This document shows, in pieces, positions 10,150 through 58,423 of a stretch of 64,000 bases of DNA. Under the pieces are notes generated by a model, which made no database searches, was not told the origin of the DNA, and was given only the letters and a program-made list of their open reading frames with translations. The DNA is from Candidatus Woesearchaeota archaeon (GTDB lineage: Archaea > Nanobdellota > Nanobdellia > SCGC-AAA011-G17 > PNOQ01). Location of the stretch: NCBI GenBank assembly GCA_043812195.1, contig JBDRML010000029.1, positions 32,001 to 96,000 of the forward strand, in the 5' to 3' direction. The translations under genes were made by a program, and so were the position numbers. How positions within the stretch are numbered: the first letter of the stretch is position 1; each line of letters begins with the position of its first letter.

Positions 10150-10270
10150 CTCGCGGTAGCTCAATGGCAGAGTACTCGGCTGTAGATGCTATTCGACTAG
10201 GCGCTTAGCTTTGAATGAAAAATAGCCAGCCGATCCCGAGAGGTTGTGGGTTCAAATCCCACCCGCGAGA
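10150..10270 (+). tRNA. tRNA-Tyr(GTA) with ~49-nt intron at 37/38 (10186-10234)
   Basis: Acceptor CTCGCGG/CCGCGAG with C1-G72, anticodon GTA 10182-10184, T arm GTGGG-TTCAAAT-CCCAC; intron pairs GCTATT/AATAGC (relaxed BHB). Confidence 0.9.
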
Positions 10271-10333: not shown

Positions 10334-10993
10334 ATGAGAATCACCAAGAAGTTAGCAGAGTTATGTGGTATCATAGTTGGAGATGGTTGTATAACTTATT
10401 ATAAAAAGAATGGTGATTATAAGGTAGAAATTTTTGGAGATTATAAAGAATTAGAATATCATAGTTACATAAAAACTCTTTTCAAAGAAATATTCAATAA
10501 AGAGCCAAAAACAAAATTGAATAAAGATGGAATTTCTCTTTGCTTACATTCAAAAGAAGTCTTAGACAAATTGATAGGATTAGGTATTCCAATAGGAAAG
10601 AAAAAAGATGTAATTAGAATTCCTCCCAAAATAATGTCAAACAAAGGATTAACAAAATGTTTTATTAGAGGATTAGCCGATACAGATTTCAGTGTTTGTT
10701 TTAAAAAAGGAGGAAGAATCAAAAACTCTTATCCTAGAATTACTGTAGAAATGCATTCTAAAAAACTGATAAAAGATATAAAACTAAGTTTGGAATCTTT
10801 AGGAATTACATGCTACTACTATGAAAGAACCAGAAATACACCTTTTGGTATATTTCAATCATATAGTTTAGATATAAATGGAAACAAAAAATTTGAAAAA
10901 TGGATGAGATTAATAGGATTTAAAAATAAAAAACATCTATCAAAAATAGAATTCTGGAAGAAAAACGGATATTATCAAAAGAATTGTTCTTAA
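10334..10993 (+). CDS. Free-standing LAGLIDADG homing endonuclease-like protein
   Basis: LAELCGIIVGDG and FIRGLADTDFSV motifs; 63 nt downstream of tRNA-Tyr. Confidence 0.85.
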   Translation: MRITKKLAELCGIIVGDGCITYYKKNGDYKVEIFGDYKELEYHSYIKTLFKEIFNKEPKTKLNKDGISLCLHSKEVLDKLIGLGIPIGKKKDVIRIPPKIMSNKGLTKCFIRGLADTDFSVCFKKGGRIKNSYPRITVEMHSKKLIKDIKLSLESLGITCYYYERTRNTPFGIFQSYSLDINGNKKFEKWMRLIGFKNKKHLSKIEFWKKNGYYQKNCS

Positions 10994-13086: not shown

Positions 13087-13920
13087 ATGAAGAAGATTCA
13101 AGAAATTTTAGGTATAGCAGTAACAAGGATAGCAAGAGAAATCGAAGCTAATATTATTGTTTCTATAGATTCTATTCCAGATATAGAATACGAAGATACT
13201 GATGATTTTCAGGTAAAGATAATAATATTCAAAAAAATAAAAGAGGAGGTCTACAGAAAAACTGAATATGTCATAAAAATAAAAAACTTAGAATATGGAT
13301 CAATTACACCAGTAAAAGAAATAATAATGGATGCAATTACAAAAGGTCACATTAATAAAGGCGATACAGTAATATGCACCCAAGACAGCAAATTAGGATT
13401 TGGCTATAAAGGAGTTATTTTTATATTTGAAATAGACGATACTTTCTTCCAAATAAGCAGACATAAATTATCTGAAAAAATAGGATCAGAAGTTATAGAA
13501 GCAACATTAAATATATCAAAAGAAATAGCACAAGAAGGCAGAGAAGGAAAAAGAGTTGGAACAGCTTTTATAATAGGAAATATATCAGAACTATCAAAAT
13601 ATATGAAACAATTAATTATTAACCCATTTCAAAACCTAGAAGAAAGACCTAAAGTTACAGACCCAAAAATGAGAGAATCAATAAAAGAGTTTGCGCAGTT
13701 AGACGGAGTGTTTATACTAGATGAAGAAGGCCATATAATAAGTGCAGGAACATATATAAATATAGATCATTCAGATATAAATTTGCCAGAGGGTTTTGGG
13801 ACAAAACATAGATCAGCTATAGCTTTAACAAGTAAAACAGATTCATTAGCTATTGTTATTTCAGAATCAGGTGGAAAAATAAGAGTCATAAAAGCAGGAA
13901 AAATTATACTTAAAATCTAA
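13087..13920 (+). CDS. dacZ: Diadenylate cyclase (DacZ-type, DisA_N domain)
   Basis: EGREGKRVGTAF, QLDGVF, GTKHRSA, ISESGG motifs. Confidence 0.85.
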   Translation: MKKIQEILGIAVTRIAREIEANIIVSIDSIPDIEYEDTDDFQVKIIIFKKIKEEVYRKTEYVIKIKNLEYGSITPVKEIIMDAITKGHINKGDTVICTQDSKLGFGYKGVIFIFEIDDTFFQISRHKLSEKIGSEVIEATLNISKEIAQEGREGKRVGTAFIIGNISELSKYMKQLIINPFQNLEERPKVTDPKMRESIKEFAQLDGVFILDEEGHIISAGTYINIDHSDINLPEGFGTKHRSAIALTSKTDSLAIVISESGGKIRVIKAGKIILKI

Positions 13921-14077
13921 ATATAACGTCTTATTTAAATACTCATCGTCTTAAAAACAAAAGCTTTATATATTACCTCTTTTCCCAGAATATATTACAA
14001 AGCAAAGGTACCTCTCTACAATGTCCAACCATGATTACTAAAAGTCATATTTACTAACGACCTAGAGAGTGCTATGT

Positions 14078-14180
14078 GCCCTGATGGTGTAGTTGGCTAT
14101 CATACGGCCCTGTCGAGGCCGTGACCCGGGTTCAAATTTCCCATAGCCTAAAAAAAGGATTGAAAGTCCCGGTCAGGGCG
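14078..14180 (+). tRNA. tRNA-Asp(GTC) with 30-nt T-loop intron at 59/60 (14137-14166)
   Basis: Acceptor GCCCTGA/TCAGGGC, anticodon arm CGGCC-CTGTCGA-GGCCG; T arm restored by removing the insert; TTCA/TGAA central helix with AAT and AGT bulges. Confidence 0.9.
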
Positions 14181-14197
14181 TATCTTTGCAAAAAGAT

Positions 14198-14923
14198 GGA
14201 CTGGTAGCTCAGCTTGGTAGAGCACTTGAGGAGATAAGCAAAAATGAAAGTACAAATTCCAAATGAACCAACAATCAATTTAGCAGAAGAGTTCGGAATA
14301 CATATTGGTGATGGGAGTATGAACTTTTATAAAGAAAAGGGATTGGTATCTATAGCAATAAATCCAAACGAAAAAAAATATATGGATTTCATTAAAAGAC
14401 TTTATTGGAGTCTATATAAAGTAAGTGTTAACTTAAGAAATTGGAGTAGGGCATATGGATTTCAACTAAGCTCTAACGAATTGGTTGAATTCAAATATAA
14501 ACAAGGTCTCCCATTAGGAAAAAAGGAAAATATAAATATTCCTCATTGGATAAAGAAAAACGAACAATATCAAAAAGCATGTCTAAGAGGAATATTTGAC
14601 ACAGATGGTACACTGTATATTGAAAAAAAGTACAATAAACCCTATCCAAGAATACAAATTTCGAGTATATCTCAAAATTTAATTAAAGATATACATGAAA
14701 TATTAGTCAATTTGGATTTTAAAGTTAGTCTATGGAAAGAAAATTTTAGAAATAAGAACTGGAAAACAAGACATGTAATTGCCTTAAGAGGATATAAACA
14801 AGTTCAAAAATGGATGGATGAAATAGGCACTAATAATCCCAAAAATTTAGAAAAATATAATAAGCTTATCTTCAGGTGAAGCTTTTAACCAAGGGGTCGC
14901 GGGTTCAAATCCCGTCCGGTCCA
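14198..14923 (+). tRNA. tRNA-Lys(TTT) split by a 652-nt protein-coding intron at 30/31 (14229-14880)
   Basis: 5' exon GGACTGG...GAGCACTTG, 3' exon GCTTTTAACCAAG...CCGGTCCA; joined stem CTTGG/CCAAG; intron ends pair GGAGATAAGC/GCTTATCTTC. Confidence 0.9.
14244..14879 (+). CDS. tRNA-intron-encoded LAGLIDADG endonuclease
   Basis: LAEEFGIHIGDGSM and CLRGIFDTDGTL motifs; lies wholly inside the tRNA-Lys intron; GAGGAG upstream. Confidence 0.88.
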   Translation: MKVQIPNEPTINLAEEFGIHIGDGSMNFYKEKGLVSIAINPNEKKYMDFIKRLYWSLYKVSVNLRNWSRAYGFQLSSNELVEFKYKQGLPLGKKENINIPHWIKKNEQYQKACLRGIFDTDGTLYIEKKYNKPYPRIQISSISQNLIKDIHEILVNLDFKVSLWKENFRNKNWKTRHVIALRGYKQVQKWMDEIGTNNPKNLEKYNKLIFR

Positions 14924-14944
14924 CTTTTAAATTACGAGAAAAAA

Positions 14945-15184
14945 ATGGAAGAATTTGACATAAAAAAACATAGCTTAGCCACAGTACATACAAAGCTAAC
15001 AGAGGAAGAAAAACAAGAGCTTCTTAAAAAATTCAACATCACAATAGATCAATTACCAATGATTCAAAAAAAAGATCCTGCTATTCAACATTTAGAACCA
15101 AGAATCGGAGATATCATTAAAGTCATAAGAGATACTCCAACTAATAAAGATAGTCCATTCTTTAGGGTTATTGTACATGGTTAA
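14945..15184 (+). CDS. rpoH: RNA polymerase subunit H (Rpo5)
   Basis: HSLATVHTKL, QLPMI...DPAI, GDIIKVIR; true start ATG 14945 (the track's 14876 start lies in the tRNA locus). Confidence 0.92.
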   Translation: MEEFDIKKHSLATVHTKLTEEEKQELLKKFNITIDQLPMIQKKDPAIQHLEPRIGDIIKVIRDTPTNKDSPFFRVIVHG

Positions 15185-16664
15185 AAATTACAAAAAAATT
15201 ATAGGGAACTATTTCAAAGAACATTCTTTTATAGAGCATGATATAGATTCATTCAATTTATTCTTAGAAAAAAACTTACAAAGTGTTATAGATGAAGTAA
15301 AAGAAATTGTACCAACTATAATTCCACAAGAATATGAAAACTTTAAAATTAAATTAAGTAGAATTAGAGTAGAGAAACCAGAAATTGTAGACGCAGATGG
15401 ATCTAAAAGAGCAATATATCCTACAGAAGCAAGATTAAGAAAGTTAACATATTCAGCTCCAGTATATCTAGAAATAAGTGCATATATAAATGATATTCAA
15501 AGGGATTCTTTCACAACACAAATAGGAAAGCTACCAATAATGTTAAAATCAAAATTCTGTCATTTATATGGTTTAAATAAAGAAGAACTAATAAAACACG
15601 GAGAAGATCCTGATGACCCTGGTGGATATTTTATACTAAACGGAAATGAAAGAGTTTTAGTAACAATTGAAGACTTAGCATCAAACAAAATATTTGTATC
15701 ACCAGCAGCAACAGGACCAAGTAAATTTGTAGGTAAAATGTATTCTGAAAAAGAAAATTACAGAATTCCACACACACTAGAACACACTAAAGATGGAATA
15801 TATTACTTAAGTTTTGCAAGATTCAAACGTGTGCCTGCTATTGCAATAATCAAGGCACTTGGTCTTTTAAAAGACCAAGAAATTATGCAATCTATTTCTC
15901 CTGACAAAATTTACGATGATGTTCTAATAAACCTTTACAATTCTATTGAGCTAAAAACAAAAGAAGAAGCATTAGAATTTTTAGCCAAAAAAATAGGTCT
16001 AACACAAAAGGATTTGAGAGAAGAAAAAACAATGGAACAATTAGATAGATACTTACTTCCTCATTTAGGAACTACACCAAAAGACAGAACATTAAAAGCC
16101 CATAATCTATGTAAATTCATAAGAAAATTCATACTAGTTTCTCAAGAAGGAATAAAACTTCCACCAAAAGATCATTACATGAATAAAAGACTTAAATTAA
16201 GTGGAGATTTATTATCAGATTTATTCAGGGTAAATATTAGATCGTTAATTCAAGATATATTATACAATTTCCAGAGACTTGTTAAGAGAGGAAAATTTAC
16301 ATCAATAAGAACAGTCATAAGAGAACAACTTCTAACTTCAAGAATTAAAAGTGCTATGGCAACAGGAACATGGCCAGGTGGTAGATCAGGAGTAAGTCAA
16401 AATATGGCAAGAACCAACTCAATAGATACAATGTCTAATTTACAAAGAATTGTTAGTTTATTAACATCCAGTCAAGAAAATTTTGAAGCTAGAGCATTAC
16501 ATGCAACACATTGGGGAAGGTTGTGTCCAGTTGAAACTCCAGAAGGTACTCCAATTGGACTAAGAAAGAACTTATCTTTAATGGCAACTATAACAAAAGT
16601 AGATTCAAGTGAAGAAAAAATAAAAAAAAGTATGGAAAACATAGGTCTAACCATAATAAAATGA
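15177..16664 (+). CDS. rpoB2: RNA polymerase subunit B'' (Rpo2N)
   Basis: PTEARLRKLTYSAP, DPGGYFILNGNERV, HWGRLCPVETPEG. Confidence 0.95.
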   Translation: MVKNYKKIIGNYFKEHSFIEHDIDSFNLFLEKNLQSVIDEVKEIVPTIIPQEYENFKIKLSRIRVEKPEIVDADGSKRAIYPTEARLRKLTYSAPVYLEISAYINDIQRDSFTTQIGKLPIMLKSKFCHLYGLNKEELIKHGEDPDDPGGYFILNGNERVLVTIEDLASNKIFVSPAATGPSKFVGKMYSEKENYRIPHTLEHTKDGIYYLSFARFKRVPAIAIIKALGLLKDQEIMQSISPDKIYDDVLINLYNSIELKTKEEALEFLAKKIGLTQKDLREEKTMEQLDRYLLPHLGTTPKDRTLKAHNLCKFIRKFILVSQEGIKLPPKDHYMNKRLKLSGDLLSDLFRVNIRSLIQDILYNFQRLVKRGKFTSIRTVIREQLLTSRIKSAMATGTWPGGRSGVSQNMARTNSIDTMSNLQRIVSLLTSSQENFEARALHATHWGRLCPVETPEGTPIGLRKNLSLMATITKVDSSEEKIKKSMENIGLTIIK

Positions 16665-29324: not shown

Positions 29325-32300
29325 ATGGCAGAAAAATCAGTAGAACAAATAAAAAAAGTAATGAATAACCCAAGCCATATAAGAAACATCGCTATCGCAG
29401 CCCATATCGATTTTTTTTGAGATAAATTCTCAAAAGACGAGTGCATGGGAAATGCATAGCACCAGATTCAAGGCTCATTCTAAGAGATGGAACTATGTTA
29501 ACTGCTAAAAAATTATTTAACTTAGCAGAGAAAAAAGGAACAAAATTTGAAGAAACGAAAGACCATATAATTTATGATACTAACTCATTAAATTTAGAAG
29601 CATTTTCCCTAAACAAAACTAATGGAAAATTAGAAAAAAAACCAATACAACTAGCCTGGAAATTAAAAGGTGGGGACTTAATAAATATTAAATTAAGAAA
29701 CAATTTCAACATTTCCACAACACCAGAACACAAATATTTAGTCTTAGAAAATTTAGAGTTTACAGAAAAAGAAGCTAAAGATATAAAATTAGGAGATAGA
29801 ATAATCTGCCCAAGAAAGCTTGAAACTAATTCAAATATTAACATAAAACGCACAATTCTACTAAAATTAGCTGAAAAAAGATTTTACGTTAAAGTAAACA
29901 AAATCTTAGGAGAAAAAATAAAAAAATTCGTTCTGAAAGAAAAAGAAACAATAAAAAAAATAAACAAAGAAATAAAGTATAAATCATTTTATCATGGTTC
30001 ATGGCAAAATAGATATTTATTAAAAGACTTAATAGAAATTTCAAGTTTAATAAATATAAACTTGGAGTATTTGTATAACAATATAGAAACAATAATTTAT
30101 AGAAGCGGAGCTCAAAGAGGAAAAAGCTCGCTGCCAACAAAATTACCACAAAACTTTCAAAACTTTTATTATCTAGCAGGATTGTTTGTAGGAGATGGAC
30201 ATCATAAAAAATTCATAGTCGGAAAAAATGAGTTAAAATCTAAATTTGTAGAAATTTGCAATGAATTAGGAATAAATGTAACATATAGAAATTATGAATA
30301 CAGAACAGAAGAAATAGTAACAAACGCTACCTTATTAGAAATATTAAACTCATTATTTGATTATCCAAAAGTCAAAAAAAGCCATAATGTAAAAATATCA
30401 GAATTTCTTCTACTATCTCCAAAAAAATATTCTTCAAAATTCTTAAGAGGATACTTCGATACTGATGGATGTGTAGAAAAAAGCAGAAGAGCAGTAACAA
30501 TATCGTCTGCCAGTGATAAAATGATAGCAGATTTAAGTATGTTTTTATTAAGATTCGGTTGCATACCAATCATAGAAAAAGACAACACAATAACAATTAG
30601 TGGACAATCCATGATAAATTTTATAGCAGAAATAGGATTTGAAATTAAAGCAAAAATAGCCAAAGCAAACTCCATAAAACAAACAATAATCGGAAGCATG
30701 GTTTCAGATGTTATACCAGTAACACATAGTAACGGAATGATTTCACTACAAAAAAACTTCACCAATTCAGAAAAATTAATTAATTTTTGTGAAAAAAATG
30801 ATATCAGCATAGAAAATATAAGTAAAATATTAAGTAAAGATATCTCATACATAGAAGTAAAAGCTATAGAAACAAAAAATGAAGAATTTGTATATGACTT
30901 CACAGTAAAAGACAACCATAACTTTGCTGCAGAAGGTATGATTATTCATAATACCACATTTTCAGACAATCTTTTAGCAGGTGCAGGCATGATTTCTAAA
31001 GAACTAGCAGGTAAACAATTAGCCTTAGATTTTCACGAAGATGAGGCAACAAGAGGTATTACAATAGATTCAGCTAGCGTATCTATGCTTCACACAGTAA
31101 AGGGAGAAGATTACTTAATCAATTTAATAGACACACCAGGTCACGTAGATTTTGGTGGAGATGTTACTAGGGCTATGAGAGCAGTTGACGGTGCAATTGT
31201 ATTAGTAGATGCAGTTGAAGGAATAATGCCTCAAACAGAAACAGTTCTAAAACAAGCTCTAAGAGAAATGGTAAAACCAGTTCTTTTCATAAATAAAGTT
31301 GACCGTTTAATCAAAGAAGTTAAACTAACACCACAAGCAATGCAAGAAAGATTCATTAAAATTATATCAGACGCTAATGGGTTCATTGAAACTTTTGCAC
31401 CAGACGAATTCAAAAAGAAATGGCAATCAAACGTACAAGACGGAAGCGTAGCTTTTGGTTCAGCATTTCATAATTGGGCATTAAGTTTCCCATACATGCA
31501 AGAAAAAGGAATAAGCTTCAAAGATATTATAGATGCTTATGAAAAAGAAGATTGGAAAATTTTAGCAAAGAAAGCACCATTACATGAGGTTGTTTTGGGT
31601 ATGATAATTAAACACCACGTAAATCCAATCACAGCACAAGCATACAGAATTCCAAAAATATGGAAAGGAGATTTAGATACAGAAATAGGAAAATCTTTAT
31701 TAAATTGTGATCCAAAAGGACCTGTAGCATTTATAGTAACAAAAATAGTAATAGATAAACATGCAGGAGAAGTATCTGCAGGAAGATTATTCTCAGGAAC
31801 ATTAAAACAAGGTGATGAAGTTTGGCTTAACATGGGTAAAAAGAAAGTTAGGTTACAACAGGTATCAATTTACAAAGGCGCACAAAGAACTGCTTTTAAT
31901 GAAATTCCAGCAGGAAACATAGCAGGTTTAGTAGGATTAAAAGATACATTCGCAGGTGAAACTATATCTTCAGAACCAATGGAACCTTTCGAAGCAATTA
32001 AACATATCTTTGAACCTGTAATCACAAAATCCATAGAAGCTAAAAAAGCATCAGACTTAGCAAAATTAATTGATGTTTTAAAACAAGTTGGAAAAGAAGA
32101 TCCAAGTATCAAAATAGAAATCAATGAAGAAACTGGAGAAAATTTGATGCATGGTATGGGAGAATTACATTTAGAGATTATAGAAAACAGAATTAAATCT
32201 GAAAAAGGTTTAGATGTAACAACTTCAGAACCAATCGTTGTTTACAGAGAAACAGTTTCAAAAGTAAGTGCAGAAAAAGAAGGTAAAAGTCCAAATAAGC

Positions 32301-43471: not shown

Positions 43472-44179
43472 ATGAATCTATCAGAAAGAGGAAAAAGGAA
43501 TGTAAGAATAAGATGGAATAGAATACATCAAAAAGAGATTGATTATATAAGGAAAAATTTAGATAAAACTTTTAATTTTAAATCTAGGTTATGTGGTTAC
43601 TTAGCAGGAGATGGCAATATTCTTACTGCTAATAGCAAAACATGTACTCATTATACAATTCGTTTTTTCCCAGATCATTATTCACTAATTAAACCATTTA
43701 AAGAAGCGTTTATCAAAACATATAATAAAAATCCAAAAGTGAAAAAATTAAAAAACTATTATTTTATAACTATTGATTCCAAACCAATAGTATATGATCT
43801 CTTGTCACTAGTTGAATTTGGTACTTCAAATTGGAGTATTCCAAATAAAATTTTAACCAATGATAAAAATAAAATAGAATGGTTAAGAGCATTTTTTGAT
43901 GCTGAAGCACATATTCATGAAAAATATATTAGAATTCAATCAGTTAATGGAAAAGGATTAAAACAAGTAAAAGAATTATTAAACCAATTTTCTATTAATT
44001 CCAAAATTTATGAATACGTTCCAAAAAATAAAAAATGGAATAAGGTGTACATACTAAATATTTTAAGGAAAAAAGATAAAATAAATTATTTAAAATTAAT
44101 AGGATTTAATCACACCATAAAGCTTAAAAAGTTAAATAAAAATCTTGATTTTGCCTTAAATAAAGCCGCGGTCGCGTAA
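43472..44179 (+). CDS. Free-standing LAGLIDADG endonuclease-like protein; 3' end overlaps tRNA-Ser
   Basis: LCGYLAGDG and WLRAFFDAEA motifs; likely ATG 43472 after TATA; stop lies in the tRNA D-arm. Confidence 0.82.
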   Translation: MNLSERGKRNVRIRWNRIHQKEIDYIRKNLDKTFNFKSRLCGYLAGDGNILTANSKTCTHYTIRFFPDHYSLIKPFKEAFIKTYNKNPKVKKLKNYYFITIDSKPIVYDLLSLVEFGTSNWSIPNKILTNDKNKIEWLRAFFDAEAHIHEKYIRIQSVNGKGLKQVKELLNQFSINSKIYEYVPKNKKWNKVYILNILRKKDKINYLKLIGFNHTIKLKKLNKNLDFALNKAAVA

Positions 44180-44282
44180 TCTGGTATCGCACAGATCCTT
44201 AAAAGAAATAAAATTTTTATGGAGTGTAAGCCTGGAAAGCCTGACCCTTTTGGGTGTCTGGGTTCAAATCCCAGTCGCGGCG
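44165..44282 (+). tRNA. tRNA-Ser(GGA) with 35-nt intron at 29/30 (44195-44229)
   Basis: Acceptor GCCGCGG/TCGCGGC, joined stem CAGGC/GCCTG, long variable arm ACCC-TTTT-GGGT; BHB GCAC/GTGT with AGA and AAG bulges. Confidence 0.9.
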
Positions 44283-58230: not shown

Positions 58231-58423
58231 CCTGGTAAAGGGTAATAAGCTATTCGACCATTCAAGTTAGAGTTGTCTAAGTTGTTCCAGTTGGAGTTAA
58301 GATTCAAGTTCCTGTTAAGGTTCAGCCTGGAAAGGCCACCACTTCATTATTCTCATGAGATACTAAATGTTGCAGTTGAATTTTATGTATCAACAGACTT
58401 GTAGCCTAGCCCTTAAGACCAGG
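58231..58423 (-). ncRNA. Putative DGR RNA: template repeat with complementary flanking arms
   Basis: 5' arm CCTGGT-CTT-AAGGG-C-TAGGCTA pairs with 3' arm TAGCTTA-TTA-CCCTT-T-ACCAGG. Confidence 0.6.
58255..58337 (-). repeat. DGR template repeat (TR)
   Basis: 83-bp core with 11 AAY codons; differs from both VRs only at TR adenines. Confidence 0.95.

Follow-up and report, generated by a model that had tools for sequence, protein, structure and literature searches.

When the two halves of an indispensable tRNA gene lie 652 nt apart, is the gene a wreck, or is it a working gene with an intron of its own? This question is raised by tRNA-Lys(UUU) in a 64,000-nt stretch of DNA (hereafter the window), which corresponds to positions 32001-96000 of contig C29 (GenBank JBDRML010000029.1) in the genome of a groundwater archaeon assigned to Candidatus Woesearchaeota. 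The source genome, G000, is metagenome-derived and fragmented (938 kb in 45 contigs, 27-33% GC, 90% complete), and the named relatives of its proteins are Pacearchaeota/Nanoarchaeia. Our analysis indicates that the locus is very probably a functional tRNA-Lys(UUU) gene that is spliced by EndA and RtcB and that carries, between anticodon-stem positions 30 and 31 (30/31), a bulge-helix-bulge (BHB) intron coding for a LAGLIDADG protein. Judged from sequence, homing mobility of this intron is plausible.

Sequence and product call place the 5' exon, tRNA positions 1-30, at positions 14198-14228 of the window and the 3' exon, positions 31-73 plus the discriminator A, at 14881-14923, both on the forward strand; CCA is not encoded. 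When the exons were joined in silico at the BHB cuts, default ARAGORN called the 74-nt product a tRNA-Lys(ttt) cloverleaf with the anticodon arm CTTGG-CTTTTAA-CCAAG, the arm into which a preliminary description of the stretch, made from its letters, had rejoined these two halves. The same description had expected standard tRNA finders to miss the gene. This proved largely correct, as default ARAGORN left the whole window without a tRNA call and Rfam, at its gathering threshold, gave no tRNA match at the locus; the intron mode of ARAGORN did find it, but mis-typed it as Ile(tat) with a 635-nt intron forced into the loop.

The ends of the intron (14229-14880, forward strand) were examined with a script that requires a 4-bp helix between two 3-nt bulges on opposite strands, each cut after its second base. 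The central helix pairs CACT (14223-14226) with GGTG (14875-14878) at four of four positions, the 5' bulge TGA (14227-14229) is predicted to be cut after G14228, where an RNA junction described below coincides, and the 3' bulge AAG (14879-14881) is predicted to be cut after A14880. The flanking helix has 4 bp on the exon side and 10 bp on the intron side, the latter being an intron-terminal stem of 14230-14239 with 14864-14873 whose 5' strand holds a Shine-Dalgarno-like GGAG (14230-14233). This geometry agrees with the junction, bulges and stem described previously, down to the one extra base, the unpaired A14874 opposite the 5' bulge. At the composition of the intron, ten consecutive pairs are expected by chance with P of about 4.9e-5, and random ends combined a 4/4 central helix with a stem of at least 6 bp in 7 of 200000 trials. 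The motif is, nevertheless, a relaxed BHB and not a textbook one.

Endonuclease genes embedded in self-splicing group I or group II introns interrupt tRNA genes of bacteria and organelles, and group I introns with LAGLIDADG genes are recorded for archaeal rRNA genes in the available part of Nawrocki 2018 (PMC6125680). Such an origin of the present intron is exceedingly improbable. Its non-coding part amounts to 16 nt, with 15 before and 1 after the open reading frame (ORF), which leaves no space for a ribozyme core, and the intron ends fit the BHB geometry. At neither of the two cut-offs used, gathering threshold and E up to 1, did Rfam report a group I or group II signal, and we rejected the self-splicing explanation on this null result. 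Without a ribozyme in the intron, splicing must rely on the proteins EndA and RtcB, and the genome encodes both: EndA as a single match of 181 aa on contig C3, with its N- and C-terminal domains present, and one RtcB (E 1.2e-144).

The ORF runs from 14244 to 14879 on the forward strand and takes up 636 of the 652 nt of the intron. The earlier account of it as a 211-aa LAGLIDADG frame was borne out by Pfam (LAGLIDADG_3, PF14528; E 1.3e-9, 38.6 bits, with the cut-off at 22.5). Its two boundary features are present in the sequence as well: GGAG in the 5' stem, a putative Shine-Dalgarno sequence 10 nt ahead of the ATG, and a TGA stop (14877-14879) that lies 1 nt ahead of the 3' splice site. Two LAGLIDADG motif regions, at about residues 13-25 and 113-122, define a monomeric type, and an alignment with 10 homologues showed the motif aspartates D119 and D121 to be invariant and D23 to be nearly so. 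In a profile search of the PDB, residues 2-192, with both motifs, aligned to an archaeal V-ATPase intein endonuclease domain. An AlphaFold model of the protein (pLDDT 91.9, pTM 0.90) consists of two alpha-beta-beta-alpha-beta-beta-alpha repeats, and Foldseek matched it at E 1e-11 to 1e-7 to the TliVMA intein, I-Tsp061I, PI-PfuI and I-DmoI, with archaeal intein endonucleases ranking first and the rRNA-intron enzymes I-Tsp061I and I-DmoI next. Identity to structurally solved enzymes is 16-21%. The ORF, which contains 21 AAA codons, carries two single-nucleotide polymorphisms (SNPs) across the sequencing runs, both synonymous. Sequence and model together predict an intact double-motif LAGLIDADG homing endonuclease. 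Of 221 candidates, 157 qualified as homologues (E up to 1e-10); the three nearest share 78% (P0002), 72% (P0003) and 58% identity with the intron protein.

We then compared the locus with its counterparts in relatives. A pattern search for 3' halves of tRNA-Lys(UUU) covered 41 genomes from the family and order to which the source genome belongs. Many of them gave matches, and the UUU-type loci number 16, the window included. The gene is uninterrupted at 12 of these (L003, L006, L008-L013, L016 and L027-L029), three have a 30/31 intron, namely the window (652 nt), L001 (47 nt) and L023 (16 nt), and L019 has an intron in the T-loop rather than at 30/31. The spliced product of the window is identical at 74 of 74 positions to the uninterrupted genes L006 and L016, which belong to two related genera, and it matches L008 at 73/74 and L009 at 72/74; these genes share the tRNA-Asp/tRNA-Lys/short-ORF neighbourhood. 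A small T-loop intron in tRNA-Lys(UUU) was seen in one genus and a second genome (L019; G005:C28, G022:C18, G011:C2, G009:C31). With a T-loop intron in some relatives and a 30/31 intron in others, the same tRNA is interrupted at different places. We hypothesize from the sequences that the mini-introns of 16-47 nt could be remnants left by loss of the ORF, their ends being indistinguishable from what BHB constraint alone would give.

Because the genome is a fragmented metagenome product, a chimera between a tRNA and an unrelated endonuclease contig has to be considered. We give this possibility almost no credence. DNA runs X1-X4, from four groundwater studies, contain 0.84-0.92 of the words sampled from 13900-15300; an X1 contig with 1 other letter continues unbroken from 13900 to 14743, through the 5' junction, and a 193-nt piece from the same run covers 14722-14914 and with it the 3' junction. 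Pieces of the intron were also assembled in X5, and the metagenome contig L061 independently has the same structure. Empty-site DNA contigs that join 14228 to 14881, skipping the 652 nt, were present in X5 and X6, in the latter with 5 other letters per side; from their sequence, we take them to be alleles of other organisms. The form with a 16-nt mini-intron was found on an X1 contig of 10.5 kb (depth 242) and in X5.

Evidence from RNA involves the neighbouring gene, tRNA-Asp(GUC), upstream on the same strand. Its 5' exon (14078-14136) and 3' exon (14167-14180, including discriminator G14180) are separated by a 30-nt BHB intron in the T-loop (14137-14166; central helix TTCA/TGAA, exon helix 5 bp), the only pair to restore the T-arm among 12 enumerated BHB-compatible splice pairs. 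Default ARAGORN recognizes the spliced product as tRNA-Asp(gtc) of 73 nt. The unspliced gene (14078-14180) is itself missed by default ARAGORN and scores 19.2 bits with Rfam, below threshold.

The RNA data came from one metatranscriptome run, X9, used as assembled contigs and compared with DNA runs X1, X5 and X6; a survey for runs containing the words of the locus returned no RNA run. A single 92-nt X9 contig covers the region and has 0 other letters. It reads 14190-14227, goes back by 62 and continues with 14166-14219. With an assumed contig word length of 31, 92 equals 62 + 31 - 1, the length expected of a closed cycle. The 62-nt segment (14167-14228) consists of the Asp 3' exon, a 17-nt spacer and the Lys 5' exon. 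Since 14166 and 14228 are both G, its junction is ambiguous by 1 nt, 14227>14166 or 14228>14167, and the latter joins two independently predicted EndA cuts, the 5' site of the Lys intron and the 3' site of the Asp intron. The cycle is apparently a by-product of cutting both introns on an Asp-Lys precursor and then ligating the middle piece, and it supports both co-transcription of the two genes and the 5' cut at G14228. Neither the intron nor the 3' exon was covered in X9, and a 14228>14881 junction did not appear; the run gives no evidence on it either way.

Homologous endonucleases occupy the same site in other tRNAs. We screened 80 metagenome loci that encode homologues with an acceptor test spanning the ORF, which needs an intact T-arm and 7/7 acceptor pairing, so that introns elsewhere could escape it. 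Eight loci were positive and five of them are real (L061, L062, L063, L064 and L070). The remaining three candidates (L084, L085 and L115) were false positives in which a whole tRNA follows a free-standing ORF. L061 duplicates the sequence of the window on a separate metagenome contig, and the other four ORFs are 42-47% identical to the ORF in the window. Removal of the ORF-bearing intron at its BHB sites gave, by ARAGORN, tRNA-Asn(gtt) with a second intron of 13 nt (from L063, whose junction L062 shares) and, at other metagenome loci, tRNA-Thr(tgt) with a second intron of 17 nt and tRNA-Ile(gat). The four host tRNAs, Lys, Asn, Thr and Ile, all read ANN codons. At all eight loci with a 30/31 intron (the window, L061-L064, L070, L023 and L001), the central helix is 4/4 and the 3-nt bulges are cut after base 2; apart from the window, they comprise six strict BHBs and L061, which equals the window sequence.

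The ORFs also meet the 3' junction in a common way. Those of L063 and L064 extend 8 nt into the 3' exon and stop on the TAA of anticodon-loop positions 36-38, so that the complete ORF exists only in the unspliced precursor. The ORF in the window has the same frame relative to the splice site and stops two codons earlier, on TGA (14877-14888 region). The homologue P0003, which is 72% identical, has a C-terminal tail in which 11 of 14 residues match the translation across the 3' junction of the window into the exon, and this tail predicts the same tRNA-Lys insertion site in a further organism.

In a quick tree of 111 rows, from which L061 was omitted as a duplicate and in which the contexts of P0002, P0004, P0008 and P0010 were not assigned, the window formed a clade with P0002 and P0003 (support 99). 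The six known intron-borne rows fell within one 51-row clade (support 96), interspersed with free-standing rows. A single origin of the intron-borne endonucleases was not supported: the six labelled rows need 5 changes, a number equalled by 37 of 500 shuffles.

Most homologues are in fact free-standing and not intron-borne. Downstream sequence was sufficient for comparison at 97 loci. At 72 of them, a tRNA gene in the same orientation begins within 150 nt after the ORF stop, against a chance expectation of roughly 0.5%, and 36 of those 72 tRNA genes are Ile(gat). In several cases the end of the ORF overlaps the 5' end of the tRNA (L037, L049, L059; G000:C29 near 109600). Free-standing copies have a TATA-like box, whereas the intron copy in the window lacks its own promoter element. 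In G000, such a box is preceded, at a distance of about 10 nt, by a conserved tandem element of about 23 nt, whose 11 copies stand before free-standing LAGLIDADG genes and some others (C1:25756(-), C3:17359(-), C17:30122(+), C17:36046(-), C25:10157(-), C25:1425(-), C26:3660(+), C29:98693(+), C29:110313(-), C31:15675(-) and C45:66611(-)). From its position it may be a promoter-proximal or regulator site; if promoter-proximal, the endonuclease genes would lie between promoter and tRNA gene.

For a genome of 938 kb, G000 contains unusually many homing-type elements, as its 26 Pfam LAGLIDADG_3 matches show. Many of these lie in frames of 1000-1500 aa and are probably inteins, for example the match at 30434-30637 of the window (C29:62434-62637), and seven ORFs of about 210-370 aa abut tRNA genes. 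Within the window, interrupted tRNA genes are accompanied by another two free-standing LAGLIDADG ORFs, whose identity to the intron ORF is 33% and 23% (10150-10270, 10343-10948, 43664-44143 and 44165-44282). A single-protein search for related loci in a collection of genome contigs yielded 58 pattern matches, 0 of them confirmed.

An abundance of free-standing homologues beside tRNA genes lends some colour to the view that one of them simply inserted into, and wrecked, this tRNA gene, leaving a pseudogene while a second, unassembled gene decodes Lys-AAA. The preliminary description had named an intact second tRNA-Lys(UUU) as the finding to look for. A bare anticodon-arm pattern gave 117 matches genome-wide, almost all noise in 29% GC DNA, and was replaced by a census anchored on the T-arm, which gave 30 matches, the CTTTTAA loop preceding the one at the window locus only. 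A 33-nt tRNA-Lys pattern matched G000 twice, at the window locus and at Lys(CUU). Neither search turned up a second tRNA-Lys(UUU); what favours the pseudogene explanation is that the genome stands at 90% completeness. Against it stand exons identical at 74/74 positions to functional orthologues, a BHB that frames the insertion and whose cuts restore the tRNA exactly, the lack of an own promoter element that the free-standing copies have, and an RNA junction at the predicted cut. We therefore regard a pseudogene as very unlikely. Demand for the tRNA is high: among the 155672 codons of 312 long ORFs in the genome, AAA is the most frequent (12203, or 7.84%), and it makes up 81% of the Lys codons. 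An intact tRNA-Lys(CUU) (G000:C1:13680-13754) equals the spliced Lys(UUU) from D-stem to T-arm save for the anticodon base. With the two so nearly identical, G000 also offers a near-cognate insertion site that is empty.

Several observations weigh against a functional gene with a mobile, protein-spliced intron. The BHB is relaxed by the extra base A14874, and a single alpha-type EndA is classically strict for the canonical motif. In a two-strand naked-RNA model of a mini-substrate, a slipped register (-23.4 kcal/mol) is more stable by 5.7 than the BHB register (-17.7), and the minimum-free-energy fold of the whole precursor adopts the slipped register, which differs by a few bases. The 10% of the genome that is missing, and its division into 45 contigs, leave room for a second tRNA-Lys(UUU). 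RNA support consists of a single 92-nt contig of depth 3.7 from one run, without a control stretch, and concerns the 5' cut only. In addition, runs X1, X5 and X6 revealed no within-species intron-plus/intron-minus polymorphism, the empty-site contigs differing from the window. The proposal of a protein-coding BHB tRNA intron, first made in the preliminary description, is on the other hand strengthened by identical uninterrupted orthologues, short 30/31 introns in relatives, homologous 30/31 introns in three other tRNAs, the lack of a second tRNA-Lys(UUU) in our searches and the RNA junction at the 5' site, and we retain it.

Under this proposal, tRNA-Lys would be transcribed jointly with the upstream tRNA-Asp, itself bearing the T-loop intron. 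EndA would cut both 3-nt bulges, after G14228 and A14880, and RtcB would ligate the exons in vivo into the 74-nt tRNA. Translation of the endonuclease could use either the precursor or the excised intron as its template; the protein would then cut intron-less tRNA-Lys alleles, and repair would copy the intron in, that is, homing.

The intron could also be spliced while its ORF takes no part in homing, as an immobile passenger or relic, or as a protein recruited for DNA binding or an RNA-maturase-like role, with vertical descent only. LAGLIDADG folds do occur in maturases and WhiA regulators, both of which were among the Foldseek matches, and no same-species empty allele was seen in the runs compared. 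Intron-borne copies are moreover rare: the acceptor test found none at 26 family loci, none at the 27 best loci from 240 genomes of the order and, as described above, 5 at the 80 metagenome loci, including the duplicate of the window. In the family, L037, L049 and L059 were discarded as embedded copies, as each has a whole tRNA overlapped by the ORF end, and L052 and L055 were assigned to neither group. At L055 (about 2080-2136, G006:C20), we noted a tRNA 3' half with anticodon arm, T-arm and acceptor strand right after a 327-aa LAGLIDADG ORF, with no matching 5' half within 1400 nt; it could be part of a split tRNA, flank an intron at another position, or be a remnant. An immobile ORF is nevertheless an unlikely explanation. 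The ORF is intact, its motif aspartates are conserved and both population SNPs are synonymous; among close relatives, the 30/31 site occurs empty, with a mini-intron and occupied; and homologous ORF-introns at one position in four tRNA species would be hard to obtain without movement.

More tentatively, and as something we consider possible but somewhat short of an even chance, we propose a homing cycle of gain and decay on tRNA genes, in which endonuclease-bearing BHB introns feed the unexplained non-canonical tRNA introns of DPANN archaea. A tRNA-targeting LAGLIDADG family that would normally reside in the tRNA 5' leader, to be freed there by RNase P, may also have invaded the tRNA itself at 30/31, with EndA taking over its release. 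From there it may have spread among the ANN-reading tRNAs (Lys, Asn, Thr and Ile), in which U36-A37-A38 gives an in-frame stop, and loss of the ORF may leave mini-introns of 16-47 nt at the same site. Under such a cycle, the 62-nt circle of Asp exon, spacer and Lys exon would be the natural by-product of two introns cut on one precursor.

The surroundings of the locus are conserved, the order tRNA-Asp, tRNA-Lys, short ORF recurring in relatives. In the window, the conserved downstream neighbour is rpoH (RNA polymerase subunit H/Rpb5-C; 14945-15184, forward strand; Pfam PF01191, E 8.2e-22). All tRNAs found in the window are intron-bearing and escape default ARAGORN, and across the genome the intron mode of ARAGORN reported introns in 16 of 28 called tRNA genes. 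Elsewhere in the window, 58317-58423 on the reverse strand matched the Rfam family RT-16 RNA at 51.3 bits, against a threshold of 50.

Archaeal tRNA introns are numerous and occur at many positions, but no mechanism for their origin and movement has been demonstrated. For rRNA BHB introns, homing endonucleases are known as the driving force; for tRNA BHB introns, we did not find them in the literature searched. A tRNA BHB intron with an intact endonuclease gene, together with empty, mini-intron and occupied alleles and a recurrence in four tRNAs, makes the question testable. The dependency is extreme, in that the reader of the commonest codon, AAA, exists only after protein-catalysed splicing. 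The archaeal tRNA introns known to us are short and non-coding. The locus also accounts for part of the 'missing tRNA' problem of DPANN archaea, as default ARAGORN and Rfam miss an indispensable tRNA; undetected disrupted tRNA genes in this group are noted in the accessible part of Kaneta 2018 (PMC5829648), which also links an alpha4-type EndA with an extra 'L3' loop to broad specificity and heavy tRNA disruption.

A full-text literature search, with supplements and most subscription journals outside its scope, did not uncover any archaeal tRNA BHB intron described as carrying a homing-endonuclease gene. In the portions of the sources available, BHB introns are said often to harbour homing-endonuclease genes, with rRNA hosts (Nawrocki 2018, PMC6125680), many rRNA introns code for LAGLIDADG proteins (Jay & Inskeep 2015, PMC4496867), and homing endonucleases are mentioned for small-subunit (SSU) rRNA introns only (Nunoura 2011, PMC3082918). 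One Pacearchaeota group I match was dismissed as mis-binning in the part of a preprint that was accessible (Williams 2020, 10.1101/2020.01.27.920355). The words 'homing', 'LAGLIDADG' and 'open reading frame' are all absent from the text obtained of a 2026 Asgard intron census (10.64898/2026.10.13.758758), as are 'homing' and 'ORF' from that of a 2014 review by Yoshihisa (PMC4090602).

Taken together, these results place the intron between several known systems. It resembles the LAGLIDADG-coding BHB introns of rRNA genes, such as those of I-DmoI and I-Tsp061I, in having BHB ends for the tRNA splicing endonuclease and an ORF of roughly 200 aa with two motifs that fills the intron, and Foldseek aligned the predicted fold of its protein with I-Tsp061I at TM 0.71/0.73 and with I-DmoI at TMt 0.74. 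It differs from them in its host gene, a tRNA, in its site at 30/31 in the anticodon stem and in its host organism, which is DPANN-type and not a crenarchaeote. With the non-canonical tRNA BHB introns of Thermoproteales and DPANN, it shares a BHB or relaxed BHB off position 37/38 and a tRNA set with many introns, but the known introns of that kind are short and non-coding, whereas this one has 652 nt and codes for a protein. As in the endonuclease-bearing group I introns of bacterial and organellar tRNA genes, the tRNA is interrupted in or near the anticodon arm (in the available part of Hausner 2014, PMC3984707); unlike those self-splicing ribozymes, the intron in the window has no ribozyme signal. 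Free-standing homing-endonuclease genes are also found beside their target genes, as with seg/mob of phage T4. Most homologues of the window protein fit that pattern, being free-standing genes that have a TATA-like promoter of their own and immediately precede a tRNA gene in the same orientation. The window copy, unlike such free-standing endonuclease genes, is promoterless and lies inside the tRNA.

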